Assembly (NCBI GenBank): GCA_963797095.1
Contig: CAWCNY010000003.1
Coordinates: 96,001 to 160,000 of the forward strand
Direction: 5' to 3'
Source: an uncultured Chloroflexia bacterium
GTDB lineage: Bacteria; Chloroflexota; Chloroflexia; QHBQ01; JADMIH01
DNA: 64,000 bases
The stretch's first letter is position 1; every line of letters starts with the position of its first letter. Below the pieces are notes generated by a model. The model did no database searches. It saw only the letters and a program-made list of their open reading frames with translations, and was not told where the DNA came from. Both the position numbers and the translations under genes were made by a program. Shown here in pieces: positions 2,235-14,200 of this stretch.

Positions 2235-3964
2235 AGGAGTTCTCCTTTCGGATTGATCTGGTCAGTTTGTTCGGCCTGCTGGGTTTGCTGGGCCACGAGG
2301 AAATCGAATAGGTCTGGCTGGTGAGTTGCCAGGGCTGTTTGGGATGGTGGGCCTGTTTGAAGGTTTAGAGGCAGGTCTAGCGCATGTAGCGCATGAGTTG
2401 GTTTCTTCTTGCCTTGTTGGTTGGAGGGGGCAGCAGTCTGGAGCGGAGCCCGGAGCATCTTGTCTACCTCATGTGCGTCCTCGTGTGCAGCCTTGATGCG
2501 GCTACGAACATGTGCCCGCTGCCGGCGTTGTGCTTCGACAATTACCTGGCGCTCAAGCGTCTGCCCTTGTGGGGAACTGAGTGCGAAGGCCGTGCAGCGC
2601 CACTTTCCCTCGAAGAACACCTCAATCTCGTCTGGGGCCGTGTAATGGGGAGCAGCGCGCACCAACACGTCCTCGCCGACCAGGACCGACAACTCCAGGT
2701 GCCAGTAGCGCTCTGAGGCGTACTTGATCCCATCCTTGTGCACCCGCCTGGTCGCCGGCTCTTTCAGCAGCATATCCAGCAAGCGCAGGAGTTGATCATC
2801 TACAGGAATTGGAGTGGCGTTGCGCTCCCAAAACTCAAGAGGTGTCTGACTGGTCTCGCTGTGGGCCTCATGCACTTCGTGGTGGTAGCGATCGATGAAT
2901 GCCCGAAAGTGTTCATCGAGTTGGGAGATGGTAAGCTCGGCTTTGGCCTTCGGGTTGCGCTCTGCGACGTTTGAGCCCACATAGCCGGGGAGGGTGGACC
3001 AAAGCCGCGTGTCCAGCGTCCTGTGCAGCCGCTCGACGATACCCCGTATCTCCGGGTCGTGTGGAGGTCCGGGGACCAGCTTGATACCCAACCCTTCCGC
3101 CAGTTGATAGACGTGGCGAGCGACCAGGTCTTTGCCGTTGTCGATCCATATCTCGTCAGGCACGCCTCCAAAAGCCTTGTGTTCATTAGTGAGCATTGCC
3201 TCTCGGATAGCGGCGGCCACCGTGAAGCGGTTAGGCTCGTCGTAGCTGAATAACCCGGCCATCACCAGGCGGGACGCGCTGTCGACTACCATCGTCAGGA
3301 ATGGCCGCACTTCTCCTGAAGTTCGCCGGTGAGAAACTGCTCTTAGGTCGCGCACCATCACGTGGAGGGGATCCTTGTGGTCGATCTGCCAGACGACACG
3401 ATGAGGATCATGCCGTATGGGGTAGGTCAGGCGGTATCGATTGCGGAATTCCCCCTCTCGTCCATCAGCGAGCAGTCGCACCGGCTCCGGTATCTGAGCG
3501 CAGATGGAGCGGACCTGGTAGAGAGTAGGTGGCGCTTCCCCCGCTGCAGATGCATACTGGCAGGCTAGCTCATACACGTAGCGAACCGGGGCATCGCGAT
3601 GGGTCAGCCGCAGGCTCTCAACGACCTGGGTCATGTGAGGGCTGAGGCCATGAGGTTTGCCTCTGTCGGTACGAGCACGAGGAGCAAGGCCTGCTAAGCC
3701 GTAGCGCTGGTAGCGGGTGTGGTAGTATCGCAATATGCGAACAGACACTCCTACCTCTCGTGCCCGCTGGTCAAGGGTGGCATTGCTAACCCGTTCTCGT
3801 TCAGCCAGATCCCCGAGCAGAGTGCGCCGACGGAAAAGCTCCTGGAGGTCCTGCTCGGAGAGAGCGCCAATATCCGGGTTGGGAGCGTCCCTTGGGGCCA
3901 CCCGGTCGGACGGTCGTTGTGGTGCTGACTTTGGTTCTAGTCCTGGTTCCCGTTGTTGTTTCAT
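2231..3964 (-). CDS. TnsB/TniA/MuA-like DDE transposase
   Basis: N-terminal HTH (YQRYGLAGLAPRARTDRG), catalytic WQID...WIDNG...GIVER, and a Mu-transposase-type C-terminal region. Confidence 0.92.
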   Translation of the reverse strand: MKQQREPGLEPKSAPQRPSDRVAPRDAPNPDIGALSEQDLQELFRRRTLLGDLAERERVSNATLDQRAREVGVSVRILRYYHTRYQRYGLAGLAPRARTDRGKPHGLSPHMTQVVESLRLTHRDAPVRYVYELACQYASAAGEAPPTLYQVRSICAQIPEPVRLLADGREGEFRNRYRLTYPIRHDPHRVVWQIDHKDPLHVMVRDLRAVSHRRTSGEVRPFLTMVVDSASRLVMAGLFSYDEPNRFTVAAAIREAMLTNEHKAFGGVPDEIWIDNGKDLVARHVYQLAEGLGIKLVPGPPHDPEIRGIVERLHRTLDTRLWSTLPGYVGSNVAERNPKAKAELTISQLDEHFRAFIDRYHHEVHEAHSETSQTPLEFWERNATPIPVDDQLLRLLDMLLKEPATRRVHKDGIKYASERYWHLELSVLVGEDVLVRAAPHYTAPDEIEVFFEGKWRCTAFALSSPQGQTLERQVIVEAQRRQRAHVRSRIKAAHEDAHEVDKMLRAPLQTAAPSNQQGKKKPTHALHALDLPLNLQTGPPSQTALATHQPDLFDFLVAQQTQQAEQTDQINPKGELL

Positions 3965-4126
3965 CGTTCCAACCTCCTTTCAACCTCTTCCTTGGTGAAG
4001 AGGAAATCGATATTTCTTGCTGTCGCTCCCTGTTGTATACTCCTTTAGAGAATCCGTCCATGCCTAACAGTCCCCACTCAGCAGGGTGCTAGGCTCTACT
4101 AAGGAGTTGGAATAACAGCGGGAAAT

Positions 4127-5272
4127 ATGGACAGGCTGGTTGATGAGACAAGGAAGAGGGGAGGGGGAAGAGTGGAACGAATGGATCGAGTAACCCCAAT
4201 CAAGAAGAATCGATCACAGCGGCCTGTGCCTCCTCAAGAGCGGTTGGCTGAACAACTTGAGGACTGGCGACGGTCACTGCAGGAACAGGATCGTTCGCCT
4301 GGCACAGTCGAGAAGTATGTCGAGGCGGTGCAGCGCTTTCTGACCTGGTTTGAGCACGAGGAAGGCGGCGGTGCGCCTTTACAAGTGGAGGCGCTCACAC
4401 CGATTGCCCTAATCGGCTATCGAAACTACCTGCAGCATGAACAACAGAAGTCGGTTAGCACTATCAACCTCCGTATCAGTGCCTTGCGCGCCTGGTGCGG
4501 TTGGCTGGTTGATCAGGGCTACCTGACTTCTGACCCTTCTGCCCGGGTAAAGCTGGTGAGGACGGCGAGCATGAACAAAGACGGCAGCGGGGCCAGTTCC
4601 AAACGAGAAGGGCTCACCGGTCCTCAAGTCAATGCTCTTCTTCGGCAGGCTCAAGCCTCCAGCGAGGCAGAGCGCAACTACGCCATTTTGCAAGTATTGC
4701 TGCAAACAGGCATTCGCTTGAGCGAGTGCAGCAGCTTGCGACTTGGCGATATCACACTTGGGGAGCGTAGCGGCATGCTGCTGGTGAGGGCGGGTAAAGG
4801 TAACAAAACTCGTTCGGTGCCTCTCAATGCTTCAGCCCGTGAGGCTCTGACCGTCTACGTCGCACCCCGCTTAGGTCCAGAAGAAGGAGAAGATGGAGCG
4901 GAAAAGAAGGCGTCGTTGAAGGTGCTTTTCAAGACCGTGGCTGCGAACTGGCCCAGGGCCGGAACGCCTCAGGCTCTTGAGCCATTGTGGCTTAGCCGCA
5001 AAGGAGGAGCGCTCACAAGTTCAGCTATCGGTCAGATGATGGCTGAACTTGTCAAGGCAGCAGGGAAGTTGGTCCCGCAAGAGACGAGCGTTCACTCTTT
5101 GCGCCATACGTTTGCTCGAAGCTACCTATCTTTATATCCCGGAGATGTGGTGGGCTTGGCAACGCTGCTGGGGCATAGTTCACTCGATACCACCCGCCTT
5201 TACAGCCAGCCTGGTGTGTCTCAGTTGGCTGCTCGTGTGGAAAGGCTCTCCCTCAACGCCTATTCGGGGTAA
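4127..5272 (+). CDS. tyrosine recombinase (XerC/D-like; probable resolvase of the transposon)
   Basis: TGIRLSE, GKGNK, HSLRH, LLGH and TRLY catalytic motifs; N-terminal SAM-like domain. The start could be 4181. Confidence 0.93.
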   Translation: MDRLVDETRKRGGGRVERMDRVTPIKKNRSQRPVPPQERLAEQLEDWRRSLQEQDRSPGTVEKYVEAVQRFLTWFEHEEGGGAPLQVEALTPIALIGYRNYLQHEQQKSVSTINLRISALRAWCGWLVDQGYLTSDPSARVKLVRTASMNKDGSGASSKREGLTGPQVNALLRQAQASSEAERNYAILQVLLQTGIRLSECSSLRLGDITLGERSGMLLVRAGKGNKTRSVPLNASAREALTVYVAPRLGPEEGEDGAEKKASLKVLFKTVAANWPRAGTPQALEPLWLSRKGGALTSSAIGQMMAELVKAAGKLVPQETSVHSLRHTFARSYLSLYPGDVVGLATLLGHSSLDTTRLYSQPGVSQLAARVERLSLNAYSG

Positions 5273-7260: not shown

Positions 7261-7416
7261 TTCGGTCATGGAGTGGATGTGGCGGGGTTACAGTGGGTCA
7301 TACAGCAGTCGGAGCCATCCGAAAAGTACTATTGGTGCCGGTAATAGCGGGCCCTATACTTATGTATAGTAGATGGGCTTTCAGGCCACGGCACGATGTG
7401 TCAGAGGAGGCGAACG

Positions 7417-8196
7417 ATGAAGCAACTCTTGTATGTTATTGCGGCCTTAGCTTTACTTGCCACGGGCTACCTGATAGGAATTTCCGCAACGAGAACCGGC
7501 GAGGCAGGGCCTTTGTTGCAAGGCGGCTGCCAGGCGTTCCCCGAGACAAAACAGGCCGTCTGCGGTCAATTCCTGACATACTGGCAGGAACATGGAGGTC
7601 TCGCGCAGCAGGGCTATCCAATCAGCGGCGAGTTCCGGGAGCAGTCCGACCTTAACGGGCAGGTTTACACAGTACAATACTTCGAGCGCGCCGTGTTCGA
7701 GTACCACCCCGAGAACCCACCGCCCAACGATGTGCTGCTCTCTCAGCTTGGCACATTCAGGTACAAAGAAAAGTACGGGTCAGGCATACCGGGCGCTCAG
7801 CCCTCAGTCACCTCTGTGCCGCCTACTCCTCTGCCTGCCGCCGTTGTAAACCTGGGCGAGCCGGTCAGGCGCAACGGGCTGGTGTTCACTGTGATCAGAC
7901 TTGACCGCCTCCTCAAAAGGACCGACGTGATCTACACTGTGAAGAACGAGAGCGGAAGCCCTGTCACCTTCGTGCTCGCCAATAAAGACCAGCAGCTTCT
8001 CAACAGCGCGGGCCAGCCTCTGGAGCTTGCCAATCCGGATGCTGTCGCTACTATCACTCTGCAAGATGGGCAGGAGTACATGGGCGGCACTACCTTCAAT
8101 GGCGTTCTGGCGGCACGCACCGACCACGCTACGTACATCGCGGACAATATAACCGGAATCGGAAGCGTGCGAGTGACCATTCCGCTATCAGACTAA
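7417..8196 (+). CDS. secreted protein with a Chloroflexi-type FPET...GYPIS...QYFERA surface domain and a C-terminal Ig-like region
   Basis: GAGGAGG RBS, signal/TM segment, recognisable repeat motif and a Pro-rich linker. Confidence 0.75.
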   Translation: MKQLLYVIAALALLATGYLIGISATRTGEAGPLLQGGCQAFPETKQAVCGQFLTYWQEHGGLAQQGYPISGEFREQSDLNGQVYTVQYFERAVFEYHPENPPPNDVLLSQLGTFRYKEKYGSGIPGAQPSVTSVPPTPLPAAVVNLGEPVRRNGLVFTVIRLDRLLKRTDVIYTVKNESGSPVTFVLANKDQQLLNSAGQPLELANPDAVATITLQDGQEYMGGTTFNGVLAARTDHATYIADNITGIGSVRVTIPLSD

Positions 8197-8381: not shown

Positions 8382-10829
8382 TTACTCACCGTTTCTATTC
8401 GCGCCTGAAATGCCGAGCGCGAACCCAAGAGCCACGTCCATGCCCATTGGGCGACCGCTTTCCTGGGCGTCCTGCCATACCTGGGCGTCAAGGTCTGCTC
8501 GGACGGCCGCTTCGATCTCTTCCCTATCACGCTGATCGTTGGGGTCGAAAAGCGTGCCGCCGAAAGCCGCCAGGGCGTTGCCTGCTCCTATCAGCCGGGC
8601 TGCTTTTCGGGCGTTGCCCTCCGCCCGCTCGATCCCGGCCCAGACGAAGAGACCAGTAGCGAAAGGATAGGGCGACGCCAACTCGCGGAAAAGATGCAGA
8701 GCCTCGCTCAGCAGCTCTTTCGCGCGCTCATACTCCCTGCAATGGTAGAGTACAAAGGCCAGGCTCATCGCCTCCACCGCCACACCTCGTTTATTGCCTA
8801 CCTCGCGGTTCAAAGCCAAACATTTCTCAAAGAAATCGATAGCGCGGGGGTAGTCGCGTTCCGACCTGGCCGCCTCGCCCATGCTGCTCAGCGCTACCGT
8901 CATGCCCTCGTTGTCTCCTATTGCTCGAGAACGTTCGAGACTCTCATCGAGTAAGGCCCATGCTAGTTCTCTATCACCCGGCAGATTCATTTCGTGTATC
9001 AGATGCGCCACTACACGGAGCGCTCTGACGATCCCCTGCTCGTTGTTCAGCGCCCTGTAGACCCGCAAGCACTCCTCGGCCATTACCCTGCAAAGGGGGT
9101 ACTCCCTCGTTCGCCATAGCACCGAGAGCGCGGCGTGCAAAGCCCTGGCTCGGACAAGAGTAGGCTTCAGCGTGTCCCCCACCAGTGACCGCTCCGGGAT
9201 CCGACCGAGCCACCATCTACCCTCGCGCGGGTAGTGGTCGATCCAGAAGGGCCTGAGTGCGCCACCAAACCGGAGGGCGATATCCTCTTCGCCTCGCGCC
9301 AGCGACCACGCTAGCGCGGCCACGGTGTTGCTGTGCTCGCTCTCAAGACGCCCCACCCAGTCAGTTTGCTCCTGCCCCCTCAGGTGGGGTTCGGCGCGCT
9401 CGACCAGGCTCAGGAAGTAGGCCGCGTGCTTTCGCCTTATGTCTTCCGCCTCGTCACTCTCACCCAATCCTTCCAGCGCATATTCTCCTATCAACTCCAG
9501 CATCGTGAAACGGCGCTCCTGGCCCCTGGTCTCGTCACTGACGATGGTGCGCTTCAACAAACTCTTCCCCAGCAGCGATTCAATGCCATCGGTAGCATCT
9601 GGTCCGCACACTGCCTCGGCTGCCTCCAGCGTAAAGCCTCCCACAAACACGCTCAACTGGGATAGGAGCCGCCGCTCGTGAAGTTCCAGAAGTTCGTAGC
9701 TCCAGTCGATGGCCGCGCGCATCGTCTGTTGGCGCGCAGGAAGGTGCGCGAAATGCCTGTGGCGCGCGGGGTTGGCCAGCAAGCTCAACTGCTTATCCAG
9801 GCGAGCAGCCATATCGGCCACCGAAAAGAGCGATACACGGGCCGCTGCCAGCTCGATAGCCAGAGGCAGACCGTCCAGACGCGTGCAGACCGTGGTTATG
9901 TCAGAGGCATTTCGCTCGTTCAATGAGAAGGATGGGTCGACCGCACGCGCTCGTTCCAAGAACAGGGCAATGGCAGGGTAGCTCGGCAGGGTCGCCACAG
10001 CGGGCATGCGTACAGGATTGGGCAACTCGAGAGGAGCGAGCGGTAATTGCTGCTCTCCCATAACATGAAGGGCTTCGCGGCTGGTTACAAGGATTTTCAG
10101 ATGCGCAGACGCGTTGAGTATATCGACCACCAGCGGCGCGGCGTCCAACACCTGCTCGAAGTTGTCGAGCACCAGCAGTACCGTCTTACCGGCCAGGAAA
10201 TGCTTGAGCGAGTCTTGTACAGTCTGGCCACCGCTCTCTGCCAGTCCAATAGTGGCGGCGATTGCCGAGGCCACCGCAGCGGGATCGCTTATGGGGGCTA
10301 ACTCAGAAAAATAGACGCCGTCACTGAAATGCCCTACCAGATTTGCCGCTACTTGCAGGGCCAGGCTAGTCTTACCTATGCCGGGTGCCCCGGTCATAGT
10401 CAGCAGATGAACGTCATCCCTTAGCAGATAATCGCAAGCAGCAGCTACGTCCTTCTCGCGCCCAAACAGCGGTCTGAGGAGCGAAGGCAAATTGGAGGAA
10501 GGCAACCGAGGCATATGCTCGGAGGTCGATGGGAGCGATGTGCCGGTTTGCGACCCATGGCCATTGGCCGATTCGTCCGGCACGGGACCTAGCTCAGAAG
10601 ATTCACCGCGTGCAAAGCTGATAAATTCCTCGTGCTCTTCCGGAGGTATTTTGAGACACTCAGCAAGCCTTTGGGCTACCTGCTTGGAAGGCCGGCGCTG
10701 GCCCACCTCGATCTTATGGATCGTGATTGTGGAGCACCCAACGCGCTCAGCAAGGTCCTCTTGGGTCAGATCAAGGGCACGGCGACGCTGCTTGAGCCAT
10801 ACGTTGAAGGAGATATCCTCTATCCCCAT
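8382..10829 (-). CDS. XRE-HTH / NB-ARC ATPase / TPR (STAND-type) transcriptional regulator
   Basis: LKQRRRALDLTQEDLAERVGCS HTH, GAPGIGKT Walker A, LLVLDNFE Walker B, LDGLPLAIELAA and C-terminal TPR-like helices. The ORF opens at 10883. Confidence 0.92.
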   Translation of the reverse strand: MGIEDISFNVWLKQRRRALDLTQEDLAERVGCSTITIHKIEVGQRRPSKQVAQRLAECLKIPPEEHEEFISFARGESSELGPVPDESANGHGSQTGTSLPSTSEHMPRLPSSNLPSLLRPLFGREKDVAAACDYLLRDDVHLLTMTGAPGIGKTSLALQVAANLVGHFSDGVYFSELAPISDPAAVASAIAATIGLAESGGQTVQDSLKHFLAGKTVLLVLDNFEQVLDAAPLVVDILNASAHLKILVTSREALHVMGEQQLPLAPLELPNPVRMPAVATLPSYPAIALFLERARAVDPSFSLNERNASDITTVCTRLDGLPLAIELAAARVSLFSVADMAARLDKQLSLLANPARHRHFAHLPARQQTMRAAIDWSYELLELHERRLLSQLSVFVGGFTLEAAEAVCGPDATDGIESLLGKSLLKRTIVSDETRGQERRFTMLELIGEYALEGLGESDEAEDIRRKHAAYFLSLVERAEPHLRGQEQTDWVGRLESEHSNTVAALAWSLARGEEDIALRFGGALRPFWIDHYPREGRWWLGRIPERSLVGDTLKPTLVRARALHAALSVLWRTREYPLCRVMAEECLRVYRALNNEQGIVRALRVVAHLIHEMNLPGDRELAWALLDESLERSRAIGDNEGMTVALSSMGEAARSERDYPRAIDFFEKCLALNREVGNKRGVAVEAMSLAFVLYHCREYERAKELLSEALHLFRELASPYPFATGLFVWAGIERAEGNARKAARLIGAGNALAAFGGTLFDPNDQRDREEIEAAVRADLDAQVWQDAQESGRPMGMDVALGFALGISGANRNGE

Positions 10830-10906
10830 CTTCCTTCTACCTCTCACATCGCGCATTGCAGAATGCAGCTTACCAATCGGCAAGCAGTAGGACGTTCAGG
10901 CCCACC

Positions 10907-10976
10907 TGTATGAGCGTTTGTACCAGTGATGTATGGGCAGCAGTATGAACAATTATATCCGATTGCGTGCAACAAT
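10907..10976 (+). promoter_or_regulatory. four direct repeats (TGTATGRGY-like) plus an ACAAT -10-like box upstream of the peptide gene
   Basis: Repeats at 10907, 10919, 10930 and 10942 (spacing 12/11/12); AACAAT at 10971. The same geometry recurs at 13819-13888. Confidence 0.7.
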
Positions 10977-11055
10977 ATGCGCGAGGTAAGCAGGCTTCAA
11001 CGGTATTGAACTATCCGCTGAAGCCCCACAGGGTTCCAAAGGGAGGTGAACAACA

Positions 11056-11133
11056 ATGAAGGCCATTATCAAATACGCCCGCTACGCTCTCGCATCGCTG
11101 GCGACAATTGGCTTCAAACTCTCTTCCAACTGA
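11056..11133 (+). CDS. 25-aa peptide MKAIIKYARYALASLATIGFKLSSN (putative signalling/RiPP precursor)
   Basis: Strong GGGAGGTG RBS before the ATG; basic N-terminus, hydrophobic core and polar tail; first gene of the operon. Below the ORF-track length cutoff. Confidence 0.75.
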   Translation: MKAIIKYARYALASLATIGFKLSSN

Positions 11134-11365
11134 GCGTCAGTAAGTGCCACGGAGTAATCCATCCTGCACCTTGGCATGGACATGGATCGTACACGATCGA
11201 AGTGGGCACTGCCATGTGATATGGGGTGCCCCTTTCTCTATGCAACCATCGACCTTGTTCCCATCTGCAAATGCGCTGCCTGCAGCTATTCAACGTACAT
11301 TGCCAGGACTTCCGTCCCATGATGATCTGTGCGAGTACACTCGTCACTCAATCCAGGAGCACTCA

Positions 11366-12919
11366 GTGATTGAGACTGCTTTCGCGCAACTTCGTTTCGC
11401 AGCCTCACTGCTCTTTGGTATTCGCTTCAGCCAGCGCGCGCTCGACAAAATGATAGACGCCATGCTCGCCACTCGTCAGGAGTTCGGCGCTCTAGGGGAG
11501 GAAGCGCGTGAACTCACTACCGGCCCCACACTGGACGAGGAGACCCGCCGCGACATGCAGCTTCGTCGCTTCCGTAAGCAGGCGACCCGCGCAGCTAACC
11601 AGACGCCTTACTACGGGGAGTTATTCAAGCAGCTAGAGCTGGAGCCGGCAAGATTGAGTTGGAAAGAGGTGCTGCGCATACCTCTCACTCCCAAAGAGCA
11701 CATGCGCGACCGCCCAGGCGACTTCGTCTGTCGGGATGCTCGCCCCGTCTTCCGGACTACCACCACCGGCACGACAGGCTGGCCCACCAGTGTCTCCTTC
11801 TCTGCCTATGAGATGGGCACCTATATAGCCCTGGGAGCAATCGGTCTGCTCAATGAGGGCACTGTCACGGGCGAGGATATTGCCATCATCAGCACCAGCT
11901 CGCGGGCAACGCTGGGCAACCTCTGCGCGGCCGGGGCATTGGCTCGGATAGGAGCACTAGTGTTCAATGGCGGCCTGGTAGATCCCGCCTTAACATTGGC
12001 GCTCCTATCCGAACGACACCGAATCCCTGGGAAGCGAGAGCGAGTGAGCTTGATGGTCACTTATCCCTCGTACCTCGGCGACGTAGTGGAGTGCGGGCAG
12101 CGGTTGGGATACTCGCCGTCCGACTTCGGGGTGCGACGTATCAATGTGAGCGGGGAGATAGTCACCGCGGGGCTGCTGGCCCGCGCGCGCAAGCTCTTTG
12201 GGGATGGCATAGAGTTCGAGAGCGGCTACGGGATAACGGAACACTGGCCTCTAACCGGCATGCTCTGCGAGCAAGACCACCTGCACTTCGAGCCTTCTCA
12301 TGGCCTGATTGAGGTGTACAACCACGAAACTCAGGCGCTTGCCCAGCCGGGTGAGTATGGCACAATCGTGTCTACCCCTTTCTGGCCTCTCAGAGAAACC
12401 ACCCTTGTCATTCGCTATGACACTCAGGACTTAGTGCGCGTGTTCGATGGCCCATTTACATGCCATCTAGAGAACTTGCCCGCCGTATCGAACGTGCGCG
12501 GCAAGCTGAAGCTAGCGGTGAAGCACGAAAGCGGTTGGACATTTCCGCGTGACATCATGGAAGCGTTGGAGGGAGAAGATCTGGCGGACGAAGTGCCGTT
12601 GCCTGCTCGCTTCAGCTTCTGGGCGGTGCCTGGTGGGGTTGCCATAGACACTGTAGTCCGGCGGGGAGCGGACCCGAAGGCAACCAGCCGCCAGGTGACG
12701 AACGCCTTGCAAGAGCGGGGCGTACCCGTTCGGGAGTTGCATCTGATTACCGACAAGAGCCGGCTTCGCAATCCGCTCCCTCTGCGAGGCGACCTGAGGG
12801 AGACTTCGTTTAGCACGTCTAGTATGCCAAGTAAGACCTCCCAAGCGTTGGAAACCCTGCGTCGGGACTCTGAATCAGTAAACCACGTTCCGAGCGATCC
12901 GCTAGCAGTGGGCAAGTAA
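11366..12919 (+). CDS. phenylacetate-CoA ligase (PaaK)-like ANL adenylate-forming enzyme with an N-terminal extension
   Basis: TTTGTTG P-loop, SGE, YGITE and IRYDTQD motifs; AGGAG RBS before GTG 11366 (ORF opens at 11144). Confidence 0.85.
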   Translation: MIETAFAQLRFAASLLFGIRFSQRALDKMIDAMLATRQEFGALGEEARELTTGPTLDEETRRDMQLRRFRKQATRAANQTPYYGELFKQLELEPARLSWKEVLRIPLTPKEHMRDRPGDFVCRDARPVFRTTTTGTTGWPTSVSFSAYEMGTYIALGAIGLLNEGTVTGEDIAIISTSSRATLGNLCAAGALARIGALVFNGGLVDPALTLALLSERHRIPGKRERVSLMVTYPSYLGDVVECGQRLGYSPSDFGVRRINVSGEIVTAGLLARARKLFGDGIEFESGYGITEHWPLTGMLCEQDHLHFEPSHGLIEVYNHETQALAQPGEYGTIVSTPFWPLRETTLVIRYDTQDLVRVFDGPFTCHLENLPAVSNVRGKLKLAVKHESGWTFPRDIMEALEGEDLADEVPLPARFSFWAVPGGVAIDTVVRRGADPKATSRQVTNALQERGVPVRELHLITDKSRLRNPLPLRGDLRETSFSTSSMPSKTSQALETLRRDSESVNHVPSDPLAVGK

Positions 12920-12920
12920 G

Positions 12921-13781
12921 ATGGAGAGCCTAACCTCTTCACGGCTGGTAGTGTTAGCCTTCGCCTTCGCTGCTATCGCTCTGAGCTGGCTTTACTTTCG
13001 CCGCTTCCAGGTCACCCGACCGCCCATCGGCGTGTTCAACCTGACCGACATAGGCATCGTGGTAGGGGGCTTAATCCTGGTGCCGTACTTATATCTGCTC
13101 TTACCTCTCTGGCTGATTGCCGGGCTGCTGACTCTGGGTGCTTTGAGTGTGATCTACTTTCTTTGGGAGCCGGTGCTGCGAGGCCGTCTGTTGGTCTGGC
13201 TGGCAACTCTCGCTCTCTTATGCGCCGATATCTGGGCTGCGCTGCAATTCGGTACAAGCAGCAACGGCTTCTTCATTGTGAATAACATTGTCCTGCTTGC
13301 TATGGTAGTGGGCTTGTCCAACCTGTGGGCGCAAAGTGGTATGCGAGCTAGAGACGTGATGATCCTGGGCAGCTTTCTCATGTTTTACGACCTGACTGCC
13401 ACCTGGCTGCTTCCCGTCATGAGCGACATGATGCTGCGGCTGGCGGGTTTGCCGCTCTCACCCATGTTCGGGTGGGGCATTGGACGCAACAGCGACAGTG
13501 CGAGCGGGAGCGGCCCATTGGCAAGTGTGGGCCTGGGGGACCTGTTGCTGGCCTCAGTGTTCCCCCTGGTTATGTACAAGGCTTTTGGGCGCGCCGGGAG
13601 CTGGGTGGCGATGGTGATAGCACTGGGAGCTATCTCAGCTATCATGCTGGCGCATATAGCAGACACATTCCCCTTGATGATTGTGCTCGCCCCTCTCATG
13701 ATAGCTCAATACGTCTACTGGTCGCGTATGAAGGGCCGTGAGCGCACCACCAGGCAGTATCTGCAGGCTGAGCCGCTGTAG
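12921..13781 (+). CDS. multi-TM GxGD intramembrane aspartyl protease (presenilin/signal-peptide-peptidase-like)
   Basis: About 9 hydrophobic segments, with FYDL and GLGDL motifs in adjacent TMs and a C-terminal FPLM in the position of the PAL motif; starts 1 nt after the ligase stop. Confidence 0.72.
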   Translation: MESLTSSRLVVLAFAFAAIALSWLYFRRFQVTRPPIGVFNLTDIGIVVGGLILVPYLYLLLPLWLIAGLLTLGALSVIYFLWEPVLRGRLLVWLATLALLCADIWAALQFGTSSNGFFIVNNIVLLAMVVGLSNLWAQSGMRARDVMILGSFLMFYDLTATWLLPVMSDMMLRLAGLPLSPMFGWGIGRNSDSASGSGPLASVGLGDLLLASVFPLVMYKAFGRAGSWVAMVIALGAISAIMLAHIADTFPLMIVLAPLMIAQYVYWSRMKGRERTTRQYLQAEPL

Positions 13782-13818: not shown

Positions 13819-13888
13819 TGTATGGGCTTTTGTATGGGTGGTGTATAGGTGAACGTATGCGCAAACTTGCCTAGGAATGCAGCACAAT
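13819..13888 (+). promoter_or_regulatory. second copy of the four-repeat operator plus a CACAAT -10-like box
   Basis: TGTATGGGC 13819, TGTATGGGT 13831, TGTATAGGT 13842, CGTATGCGC 13854; CACAAT at 13883. Confidence 0.7.
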
Positions 13889-13969
13889 GCAACCAGGTCG
13901 CAGCACTACCAGCAGGTCAACAATCCCAATCAACAGGACGCAACTATGGACGATGAGGAAAGAGGTCAA

Positions 13970-14200
13970 ATGAGCAGTATCCCCCATTACAGTTCATCCA
14001 GGCTTTTCCTCGTGCGGGTGTTGGTGGACGAGACCAGTGGGTGCAAAGGCCAGAGGAAGGCGGAGCGGAGCGGGCGAGTGCAGCATGTGGTCACGGGAGA
14101 GGCTCACGACTTTCGCGGTTGGGCCGAGCTACTGCAATACCTCGACACACTTCTGGACGACCCGCCGAACGCCTGCTCCGATAACGGCAGTAACGAGTAA
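13970..14200 (+). CDS. small hypothetical protein (LFLVRV...GRVQHVVTGEAHDF..W.EL)
   Basis: GAGG RBS before ATG 13970; globular-looking beta/alpha sequence; ORF opens at 13877. Confidence 0.65.
   Translation: MSSIPHYSSSRLFLVRVLVDETSGCKGQRKAERSGRVQHVVTGEAHDFRGWAELLQYLDTLLDDPPNACSDNGSNE

Follow-up and report, generated by a model that had tools for sequence, protein, structure and literature searches.

A three-gene cassette, consisting of a 25-codon peptide gene, a gene for a PaaK-family adenylate-forming ligase and a gene for a membrane protein with the fold of presenilin and signal peptide peptidase (SPP), probably marks an undescribed pathway for making short processed peptides. The cassette lies in a 64,000-nt stretch of DNA from an uncultured Chloroflexia bacterium (assembly GCA_963797095.1, contig CAWCNY010000003.1, positions 96,001 to 160,000 of the forward strand), referred to below as the window, and coordinates are those of the window unless a locus or contig is named. 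On the evidence of sequence comparison, we propose, with moderate confidence, that the ligase and the protease, to which the peptide is genetically linked, both use it as a substrate and mature it as a precursor. The elements of the cassette in the window are as follows:

11041 to 11048, plus strand: Shine-Dalgarno (SD) sequence GGGAGGTG, separated by a 7-nt spacer (AACAACA) from the ATG at 11056
11056 to 11133, plus strand: peptide gene of 25 aa, MKAIIKYARYALASLATIGFKLSSN followed by TGA, with its ATG start at 11056
11366 to 12919, plus strand: PaaK-family adenylate-forming ligase, probable GTG start at 11366, in a frame open from 11144
12921 to 13781, plus strand: presenilin/SPP-fold membrane protein of 286 aa with nine transmembrane helices, starting 1 nt after the ligase stop

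In the window peptide, residues 1-19 form a conserved basic and hydrophobic leader ending in Gly19, which is followed by an invariant Phe20, four variable residues and the terminal Asn25. An earlier note, made from the letters of the window, had described a 25-aa frame with a strong ribosome-binding site and a final Asn, and this is borne out by the sequence, as is the composition it gave: a basic N-region (K2, K6 and R9), an Ala/Leu core with Ser, Thr and Gly, Lys and Ser in the tail, and Asn in last place. The most hydrophobic 11-residue stretch is YALASLATIGF (Kyte-Doolittle hydropathy 1.55), and the peptide carries a net charge of +4. Pfam and NCBIfam searches with the peptides gave nothing meaningful, an Rfam search of 10800-11400 gave no match, and a search of sequencing runs matched six soil DNA runs, the best sharing 0.30 of words, with no RNA run listed.

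Sequence comparison indicates that the 25-codon open reading frame (ORF) is a gene that is translated and subject to purifying selection; its tail varies and its last residue is conserved. A homologue, MFKVALRYVRYAMAMLSAVGFGVGLN, lies upstream of a ligase homologue in a related genome (G037), and a locus of a Chloroflexia metagenome-assembled genome (L008) carries two tandem copies, MKAIIKYARYTLASLATISFRLAGN and one ending in RLASN. A first peptide profile recovered more copies within the order, often as tandem pairs. With a second profile (A2, 13 sequences), another family of the phylum yielded a single clear member (G379, MLKYTARYARYILVTLTAVAFKLSAN), and G433 and G321 yielded a divergent subfamily (MAQFIATLKYTRYAMGSLATVLLGCCGGS and one closely related peptide). 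Scanning soil metagenomes with the ligase as anchor provided 80 loci out of 219 confirmed stretches, and hmmsearch over all small ORFs of these loci yielded 132 peptide ORFs at E ≤ 1e-3; with 14 from genomes, the family amounts to 146 ORFs, corresponding to 104 distinct genes and 101 distinct peptides. The length is 25-27 aa in 95 of the 101 peptides, and the last residue is Asn in 86, Gln in nine, Ser in four, Asp in one and Gly in one. Among the 104 genes, 96 start with ATG and 99 have an SD-like core at -18 to -4, compared with 347 of 1945 (18%) control small ORFs from the same loci.

The pattern of substitution is that of a coding sequence with two distinct parts. Entropy over codons 2-21 of the 72 genes of 26 codons is 0.85, 0.51 and 1.31 at the first, second and third codon positions, respectively, and the invariant residues R10, G20 and F21 (26-codon numbering) still vary at the third; codons 22-25 of the same genes vary at all three positions (1.74/1.49/1.90). 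Mean pN/pS, calculated on 63 metagenome-derived 26-codon genes, is 0.41 in the leader versus 0.86 in the four-codon tail. The conserved leader, variable core and terminal Asn, which the earlier note had proposed to look for at homologous loci, are thus found there. Between the window and L008, the ORF, the SD sequence and a downstream hairpin are conserved islands amid diverged DNA. Together, the 146 homologous ORFs, their shared length and terminal residue, the SD enrichment and the pN/pS values argue that the ORF is not a product of chance.

The C-terminal part of the peptides is variable within narrow limits. The distance from the invariant Phe to the C-terminus is nearly fixed across the family, and the tail shows a loose pattern of small, hydrophobic, Ser/Thr, hydrophobic and Asn residues. 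Up to eight different tails occur in one locus, and the terminal residue is uniform per locus (eight of eight Gln in L084). The position before the Phe (-1) is always small (Gly, Ala or Ser) and position -3 is mostly Thr, Ser or Asn, which fits a cleavage junction without specifying the protease that cuts it. Peptides ending in Ser (KSS, CGCS, GCGGS and CCGGS) are encoded after the membrane gene or belong to a distant family (f31), and their ligases form three separate, well-supported clades; a tie between the Ser-ending tail, the ligase clade and the gene order is only suggestive, as kin share such labels.

The distant subfamily of G433:C117 (L055) and G321:C285 (L056), also seen in L111 and L112, has Cys/Gly-rich tails (LLGCCGGS, FLLCSGGS, GLCCGCS and WGCGGS) and keeps the ligase-protease gene order. 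These tails resemble a lipobox or, with their Cys 4-5 residues before the C-terminal end, thiolactone autoinducers. In L139 (G024:C76), a 97-aa ORF at 2676-2969, which lies downstream of the ligase-protease pair, ends in a peptide-like module (...KYARTVFTSLSTIGFSMSRIGVN) and may be a precursor variant with a long leader.

The leader is distinctive within the genome of the window. The 12 million six-frame residues contain its motif, [RKHN]Y.RY[AVSTG][LIMVF], 19 times, and only two of these 19 occurrences lie near a start codon with a hydrophobic stretch after them, one being the window peptide and the other a 76-aa ORF with SVNWS repeats. The scarcity of the motif in its proper context points to a specific leader, and a reading as a generic Sec signal peptide was rejected on this ground. 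The SVNWS-repeat ORF lies outside the window (G000:C6:1059952-1060182, equivalent to L054:1501-1731, plus strand), has the same leader (MIRRTLRYARYAL...FALSVN) and continues into SVNWS repeats containing an N-x-S sequon. It is divergent from a GT4 glycosyltransferase gene in four loci (L054, L143, L145 and L148), and its family is present in 13 of 40 genomes of the order, all from one genus (G016, G021 and G022 are unpublished).

The ligase downstream of the peptide gene is of the adenylating ANL/PaaK type, as judged from NCBIfam and PDB sequence similarity and from Foldseek, in keeping with the earlier note, which had placed a ligase there. Its probable start, GTG 11366, is preceded by AGGAG at 11355-11359 and was chosen because homologues begin there (MIETAF...). 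The DVU_1553 family (2.2e-24) was among its NCBIfam matches, as was PaaK (5.8e-12), but none came near the curated cutoffs: the best model, DVU_1553, scored 86 against a cutoff of 300, and TIGR02155, the phenylacetate-CoA ligase equivalog, scored 44.9 bits against a cutoff of 646, which leaves the protein outside that equivalog. The best PDB sequence match was PaaK (4r1l, 6.6e-15). The AlphaFold2 (AF2) model (pLDDT 87.9) has a PaaK fold, preceded by three extra helices (about 57 residues) at the N-terminus and followed by a disordered tail at the C-terminus. Foldseek placed it nearest to the PaaK-family ligases BT_0428, PaaK1, NatL2, AjiA1 and ClxA, with E-values down to 1.9e-24 and a best match at template-modelling (TM) scores of 0.64/0.76; these AMP ligases share the fold (TM 0.61-0.64 on the query) but are only 19-22% identical, and the N-terminal extension and disordered tail are extra in the window protein. 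NatL2-type ligases couple the adenylate to oxygen or nitrogen nucleophiles without CoA, and the known substrates of PaaK-family ligases are small aromatic acids. Invariant positions in the ligase alignment (A8, made without L083, L079, L089 and L116) are T133, T134, G135, T137, G138 and P140, T291-E292, D355 and G379-K380, which we take to be nucleotide-binding motifs.

The membrane protein has more than 500 homologues, all labelled hypothetical and none with a Pfam domain, and a Pfam and NCBIfam scan of the window protein gave no match. Across 31 diverse sequences, Y156-D157, G204-x-G206-D207 and P258 are invariant, and L205 completes a GLGD motif (G204-L205-G206-D207) in the window protein. 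The AF2 model (pLDDT 89.6) consists of nine helices with two short strands before GLGD, the YD pair lying in helix 6 (143-163) and GLGD at the start of helix 7 (205-222). The top 20 Foldseek matches in the PDB were human SPPL2a, presenilin-1 in gamma-secretase and archaeal PSH, all at probability 1.00, with TM scores of 0.5-0.68 overall and of 0.63-0.68 for SPPL2a (E 1.9e-4). SPP/SPPL, presenilin and PSH (MEROPS A22) are thus alike with it in the nine-helix fold, the YD of helix 6, the GLGD of helix 7 with two short strands ahead of it, and a Pro in helix 9. They differ from it in that the window protein is bacterial, has a PAL motif reduced to (G/A)P, P258 alone being invariant at that position of helix 9 (APL, GPL, GPA or GPV), and matches no A22 Pfam model and no PDB sequence. 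On the modelled structure, the protein is read as a presenilin/SPP-fold GxGD protease, with no membership of A22 found at the sequence level, and the protease that the earlier note had placed downstream is in this way given an identity by its invariant YD and GLGD motifs, AF2 and Foldseek. One neighbouring cluster in the Atlas has PF04258 (Peptidase_A22B) on 24% of its members, a lead only. An Arg/Lys-rich loop after helix 1 and a basic C-terminal tail would, by the positive-inside rule applied to the model, suggest an N-out/C-in orientation. SPP, which cleaves helices lying N-in/C-out (signal peptides, for instance), has this orientation.

The link between the peptide and the two enzymes comes from gene order. 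Dereplication of the 80 metagenome loci at 95% nucleotide identity left 52 clusters, and synteny was counted in the 33 dereplicated loci that extend 500 nt or more upstream of the ligase. One to six same-strand peptide genes lie just upstream of the ligase in 22 of these (three copies in ten loci; six plus two on the opposite strand in one cluster), and a single peptide gene directly follows the membrane gene in another five, so that a peptide gene lies within the cassette in 27 of 33. The membrane gene follows the ligase in 38 of the 39 loci with enough sequence. In G433 and G321, from a different family of the phylum, the peptide-ligase-protease order is kept with a ligase 33% and a protease 27-31% identical to those of the window. 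The three-gene order in this distant family and the presence of a peptide gene within the cassette in 27 of 33 loci support the link between peptide and enzymes. The ligase was found in six of 41 genomes of the order. All five order genomes with strong peptide matches (G000, G030, G034, G037 and G041) carry the enzymes, with the peptide genes of G030 and G034 on other contigs than the ligase; in the other ligase carriers, G001 and G024, the contigs end right at the ligase. In L008 (CAWINE010000002.1, 4106-6559 and 912-3339), each of the ligase, protease and regulator genes is broken into two frames, which could be due to sequencing frameshifts or to real decay, and both peptide genes are intact.

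The following pathway would account for these features. The precursor would be a free-standing, signal-peptide-like molecule: a basic and hydrophobic part (about 20 residues) comes first, then a small residue, Phe, four positions that vary and finally Asn (Gln in some). The PaaK-type ligase would act in the cytoplasm and activate a carboxylate with ATP, most likely the C-terminal one of the peptide, a choice that follows from the fixed Phe-to-end distance and the conserved Asn or Gln. The side chain of the Asn or Gln could then close to a cyclic imide, or the acyl group could pass to another nucleophile; activation of a terminal Asn leading to an imide is the first step of microcin C synthesis. 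The peptide would sit in the membrane N-in/C-out, and the presenilin-fold protease, in SPP orientation, may cut near the Gly-Phe junction to free a C-terminal peptide of about six residues (FKLSSN, modified, in the window). The neighbouring STAND-TPR regulators would control the cassette and may sense the product, which may be either a signal or a natural product. Confidence in the order of the steps, the cleavage site, the Asn chemistry and the role of the product, which we infer, is much below that in the substrate relation. In its complete form, in which a 25-mer activated at its C-terminal Asn or Gln by a PaaK-type ligase (e.g., as a cyclic imide) is cut in the membrane by a presenilin/SPP-type protease and the released, variable FxxxxN hexapeptides are strain-specific signals read by STAND-TPR regulators, the scheme is tentative and rather doubtful. 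The earlier note's proposal that the peptide is the substrate of the ligase and protease is therefore upheld as to the identities of the enzymes and the conserved order (down to 27-33% identity), while the substrate relation itself is drawn from synteny. A complex prediction for the ligase (A5) with the peptide (A2) scored 0.02, with a peptide below the 30 residues for which the tool is calibrated, and speaks neither for nor against the pairing.

Several observations weigh against this pathway. In six of the 33 loci, no peptide gene is within reach, and G028 (91% complete) and G379 (93%) have peptide genes but no membrane-protease homologue was found in them; the ligase search in this pair covered G028 only, and G379 has a ligase fragment near its peptide gene. 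Peptide genes also stand beside STAND-TPR regulators without intact enzyme genes (L040, L043, L045 and L047; G034 and G379). The SVNWS-repeat ORFs share the leader, yet among their 13 genomes the ligase was matched only in G000. As to the protease, no Pfam A22 model (Peptidase_A22B, Presenilin or SPP) matched any of six members searched at E up to 10, and profile A4 of the membrane protein gave 0 hits against PDB sequences. As to the ligase, relatives of PaaK act on small aromatic acids, not peptides, and if the peptide were N-in/C-out a cytoplasmic ligase would reach its C-terminus only before insertion. The h-region of the peptide is short (11 residues, hydropathy 1.55), and the pathway is proposed here from sequence and models, with no RNA run listed among the sequencing matches. 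In L043 (G034:C894), a 119-aa ORF on the minus strand (3818-4177), just downstream of the lone peptide gene, aligns with the membrane protease over residues 76-153 of the latter (37.5% identity) and looks like the remnant of a protease gene.

Some of these observations would be expected if the peptide instead served the neighbouring XRE-STAND-TPR(-LuxR) or SARP-type regulators primarily as a ligand or partner, like the short hydrophobic peptide (SHP) pheromones, the ligase-protease pair being just one of the outputs under regulation or a maturation route that is optional. Peptide genes of G034 and G379 adjoin regulators, and at most remnants of the enzyme genes lie beside them (a protease-like fragment in L043, a ligase fragment at the G379 locus); G028 and G379 have peptides without a detectable protease; a regulator of this type stands beside the cassette of the window, as it does in about 13 of 24 longer metagenome loci; and a variable tail would fit receptor specificity. 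In Rgg-SHP and the enterococcal pheromones, the latter of which are cut from signal peptides by the membrane protease Eep, the general layout is similar, with a peptide gene of about 25 codons, basic and then hydrophobic, adjoining a cytoplasmic helix-turn-helix (HTH) and TPR regulator, and an intramembrane protease able to free a short C-terminal peptide. However, several tails per locus, up to eight, would be unusual for a pheromone, the gene order also holds in loci in which a regulator of this kind is not seen (L081, L085, L087, L116 and L117), and the regulators differ between loci (XRE, SARP or kinase) while the enzymes are constant. The regulator here also contains a STAND ATPase and, in many cases, a LuxR HTH, the protease is aspartyl rather than a zinc site-2 enzyme, and the cassette has an ATP-dependent ligase, several variant peptides per locus and a home in Chloroflexota, not Bacillota. 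Taken strictly, the cassette is probably no RRNPP system, as receptor architecture, protease class and taxon differ, and the reading of the peptide as a regulator ligand in its own right is considered unlikely.

It is less probable still that the peptide is a stable small membrane protein, either amphipathic and membrane-active (resembling a toxin or surfactant) or one that modulates the protease or forms a subunit of it. At 25 aa, with its charge of +4, moderate hydrophobicity and helix propensity, it would suit such a role; its membrane-like part is the conserved part, and tandem copies recall small membrane-active peptides. This would leave unexplained the terminal Asn or Gln, the Phe at fixed distance and the variable tail, as well as the linkage to an ATP-dependent ligase, and no antisense or antitoxin feature was seen, the Rfam search of the region having been negative.

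A microcin C-like peptidyl-nucleotide, in which the terminal Asn would become the aspartamide-adenylate of a 'Trojan horse', is very improbable. The Asn terminus in 86 of 101 peptides, the adjoining ATP-using adenylating enzyme and the MFS exporters of some loci recall MccA/MccB, in which a ribosomal peptide has its C-terminal Asn activated by ATP, an activation that is only presumed for the cassette. MccB, however, is the ThiF/E1-like enzyme that defines the class, and the cassette does not encode such an enzyme, its only ATP-dependent enzyme being PaaK/ANL-type; it is therefore not a microcin C system. The precursor is a 25-mer with a hydrophobic leader rather than a heptapeptide, Gln, Ser and Asp termini also occur, and the microcin C pathway has no place for the membrane protease found here. 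Finally, a cis-regulatory upstream ORF (attenuation leader) of the ligase operon, or a chance ORF, was already disfavoured and is barely credible, since the position 232 nt before the ligase start and the conserved hairpin in between are outweighed by tandem copies, copies far from any ligase, amino-acid conservation with synonymous drift and a strong SD sequence in 99 of 104 genes.

With the peptide as a precursor of both enzymes, the cassette appears, by analogy, to work like that of a peptide made by the ribosome and modified after translation (RiPP) or a peptide pheromone. It has two of the features expected of a RiPP precursor locus, namely a short ORF with a conserved leader and variable core, and adjoining genes for a putative tailoring enzyme and a protease. 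In AgrD/AgrB, a small precursor with a membrane-associating N-terminal part is handled by a membrane protease and its C-terminal carboxyl takes part in the final chemistry; the cassette differs in having no AgrB-type cysteine protease or two-component sensor and in drawing its energy from a separate ATP-dependent ligase. To our knowledge, presenilin/SPP proteases have been studied almost only in eukaryotes and archaea, the natural substrates of the prokaryotic ones are poorly known, and no A22 enzyme is known to share an operon with an adenylating ligase and a gene for a dedicated mini-substrate. Nothing on a presenilin-like protease combined with a ligase and a small peptide came up in literature searches, nor did an ANL/PaaK ligase acting as a RiPP tailoring enzyme. 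M50 intramembrane metalloproteases are named in a review of the proteases that act on RiPP leaders, in which neither 'presenilin' nor 'aspartyl' occurs (PMC10885120). The bacterial family described here, of more than 500 proteins, comes with a genetically linked candidate substrate and a partner enzyme; if the substrate relation is true, intramembrane aspartyl proteolysis could be studied there in a simple bacterial model. The cassette also points to a class of ribosomal peptides made with the help of an ANL/PaaK ligase. Where a gene caller passes over frames of about 25 codons, the key gene of a cassette that is widespread in soil Chloroflexota may be missed.

Upstream of the peptide gene and between it and the ligase gene, the window contains the following further elements:

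8382 to 10883, minus strand: divergent regulator of 833 aa with XRE helix-turn-helix, NB-ARC/STAND and TPR regions, opening at TTG 10883
10830 to 11040, strand not assigned: divergent promoter region between the regulator and peptide genes, with blocks conserved relative to L008
11204 to 11239, plus strand: GC-rich stem-loop (GGGCACT...GGTGCCC) followed by CTTTCTCT, between the peptide and ligase genes, conserved in L008

Pfam identified HTH_3 (1.3e-13), NB-ARC (6.8e-8) and TPR families in the regulator, the conserved N-terminus of which begins at an ATG near 10829. Similar XRE-STAND-TPR-LuxR regulators directly adjoin the peptide genes of L040, L043, L045 and L047, and the STAND/TPR regulators that adjoin the cassette in the longer metagenome loci are of XRE-LuxR or SARP/BTAD type; the type of regulator varies between loci, and the peptide, ligase and protease are constant. 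An MFS_3-type transporter is present in three of the same 24 loci and an MMPL protein in one. The divergent promoter region shows 71% mean column identity with L008 (alignment A7) and contains three TGTATG-like direct repeats at 10903-10957; together with the blocks conserved in L008, these repeats are candidate operator sites for the regulator. A scan of 10800-11300 for sigma-70 consensus sequences and terminators called nothing, the stem-loop at 11204-11239 included. The stem-loop region folds at -43.5 kcal/mol (z -2.0) and is possibly a partial terminator or processing signal, which may set the ratio of precursor to enzyme transcripts. Further away, a 107-aa ORF without a family match follows the protease gene (13877..14200), and a phage-type integrase gene (4127..5272) lies 6 kb upstream of the cassette. 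A secreted protein of 266 aa is encoded at 7396..8196; its domain recurs near peptide loci in G030, G028 and G034 and looks like a common secreted-protein domain.
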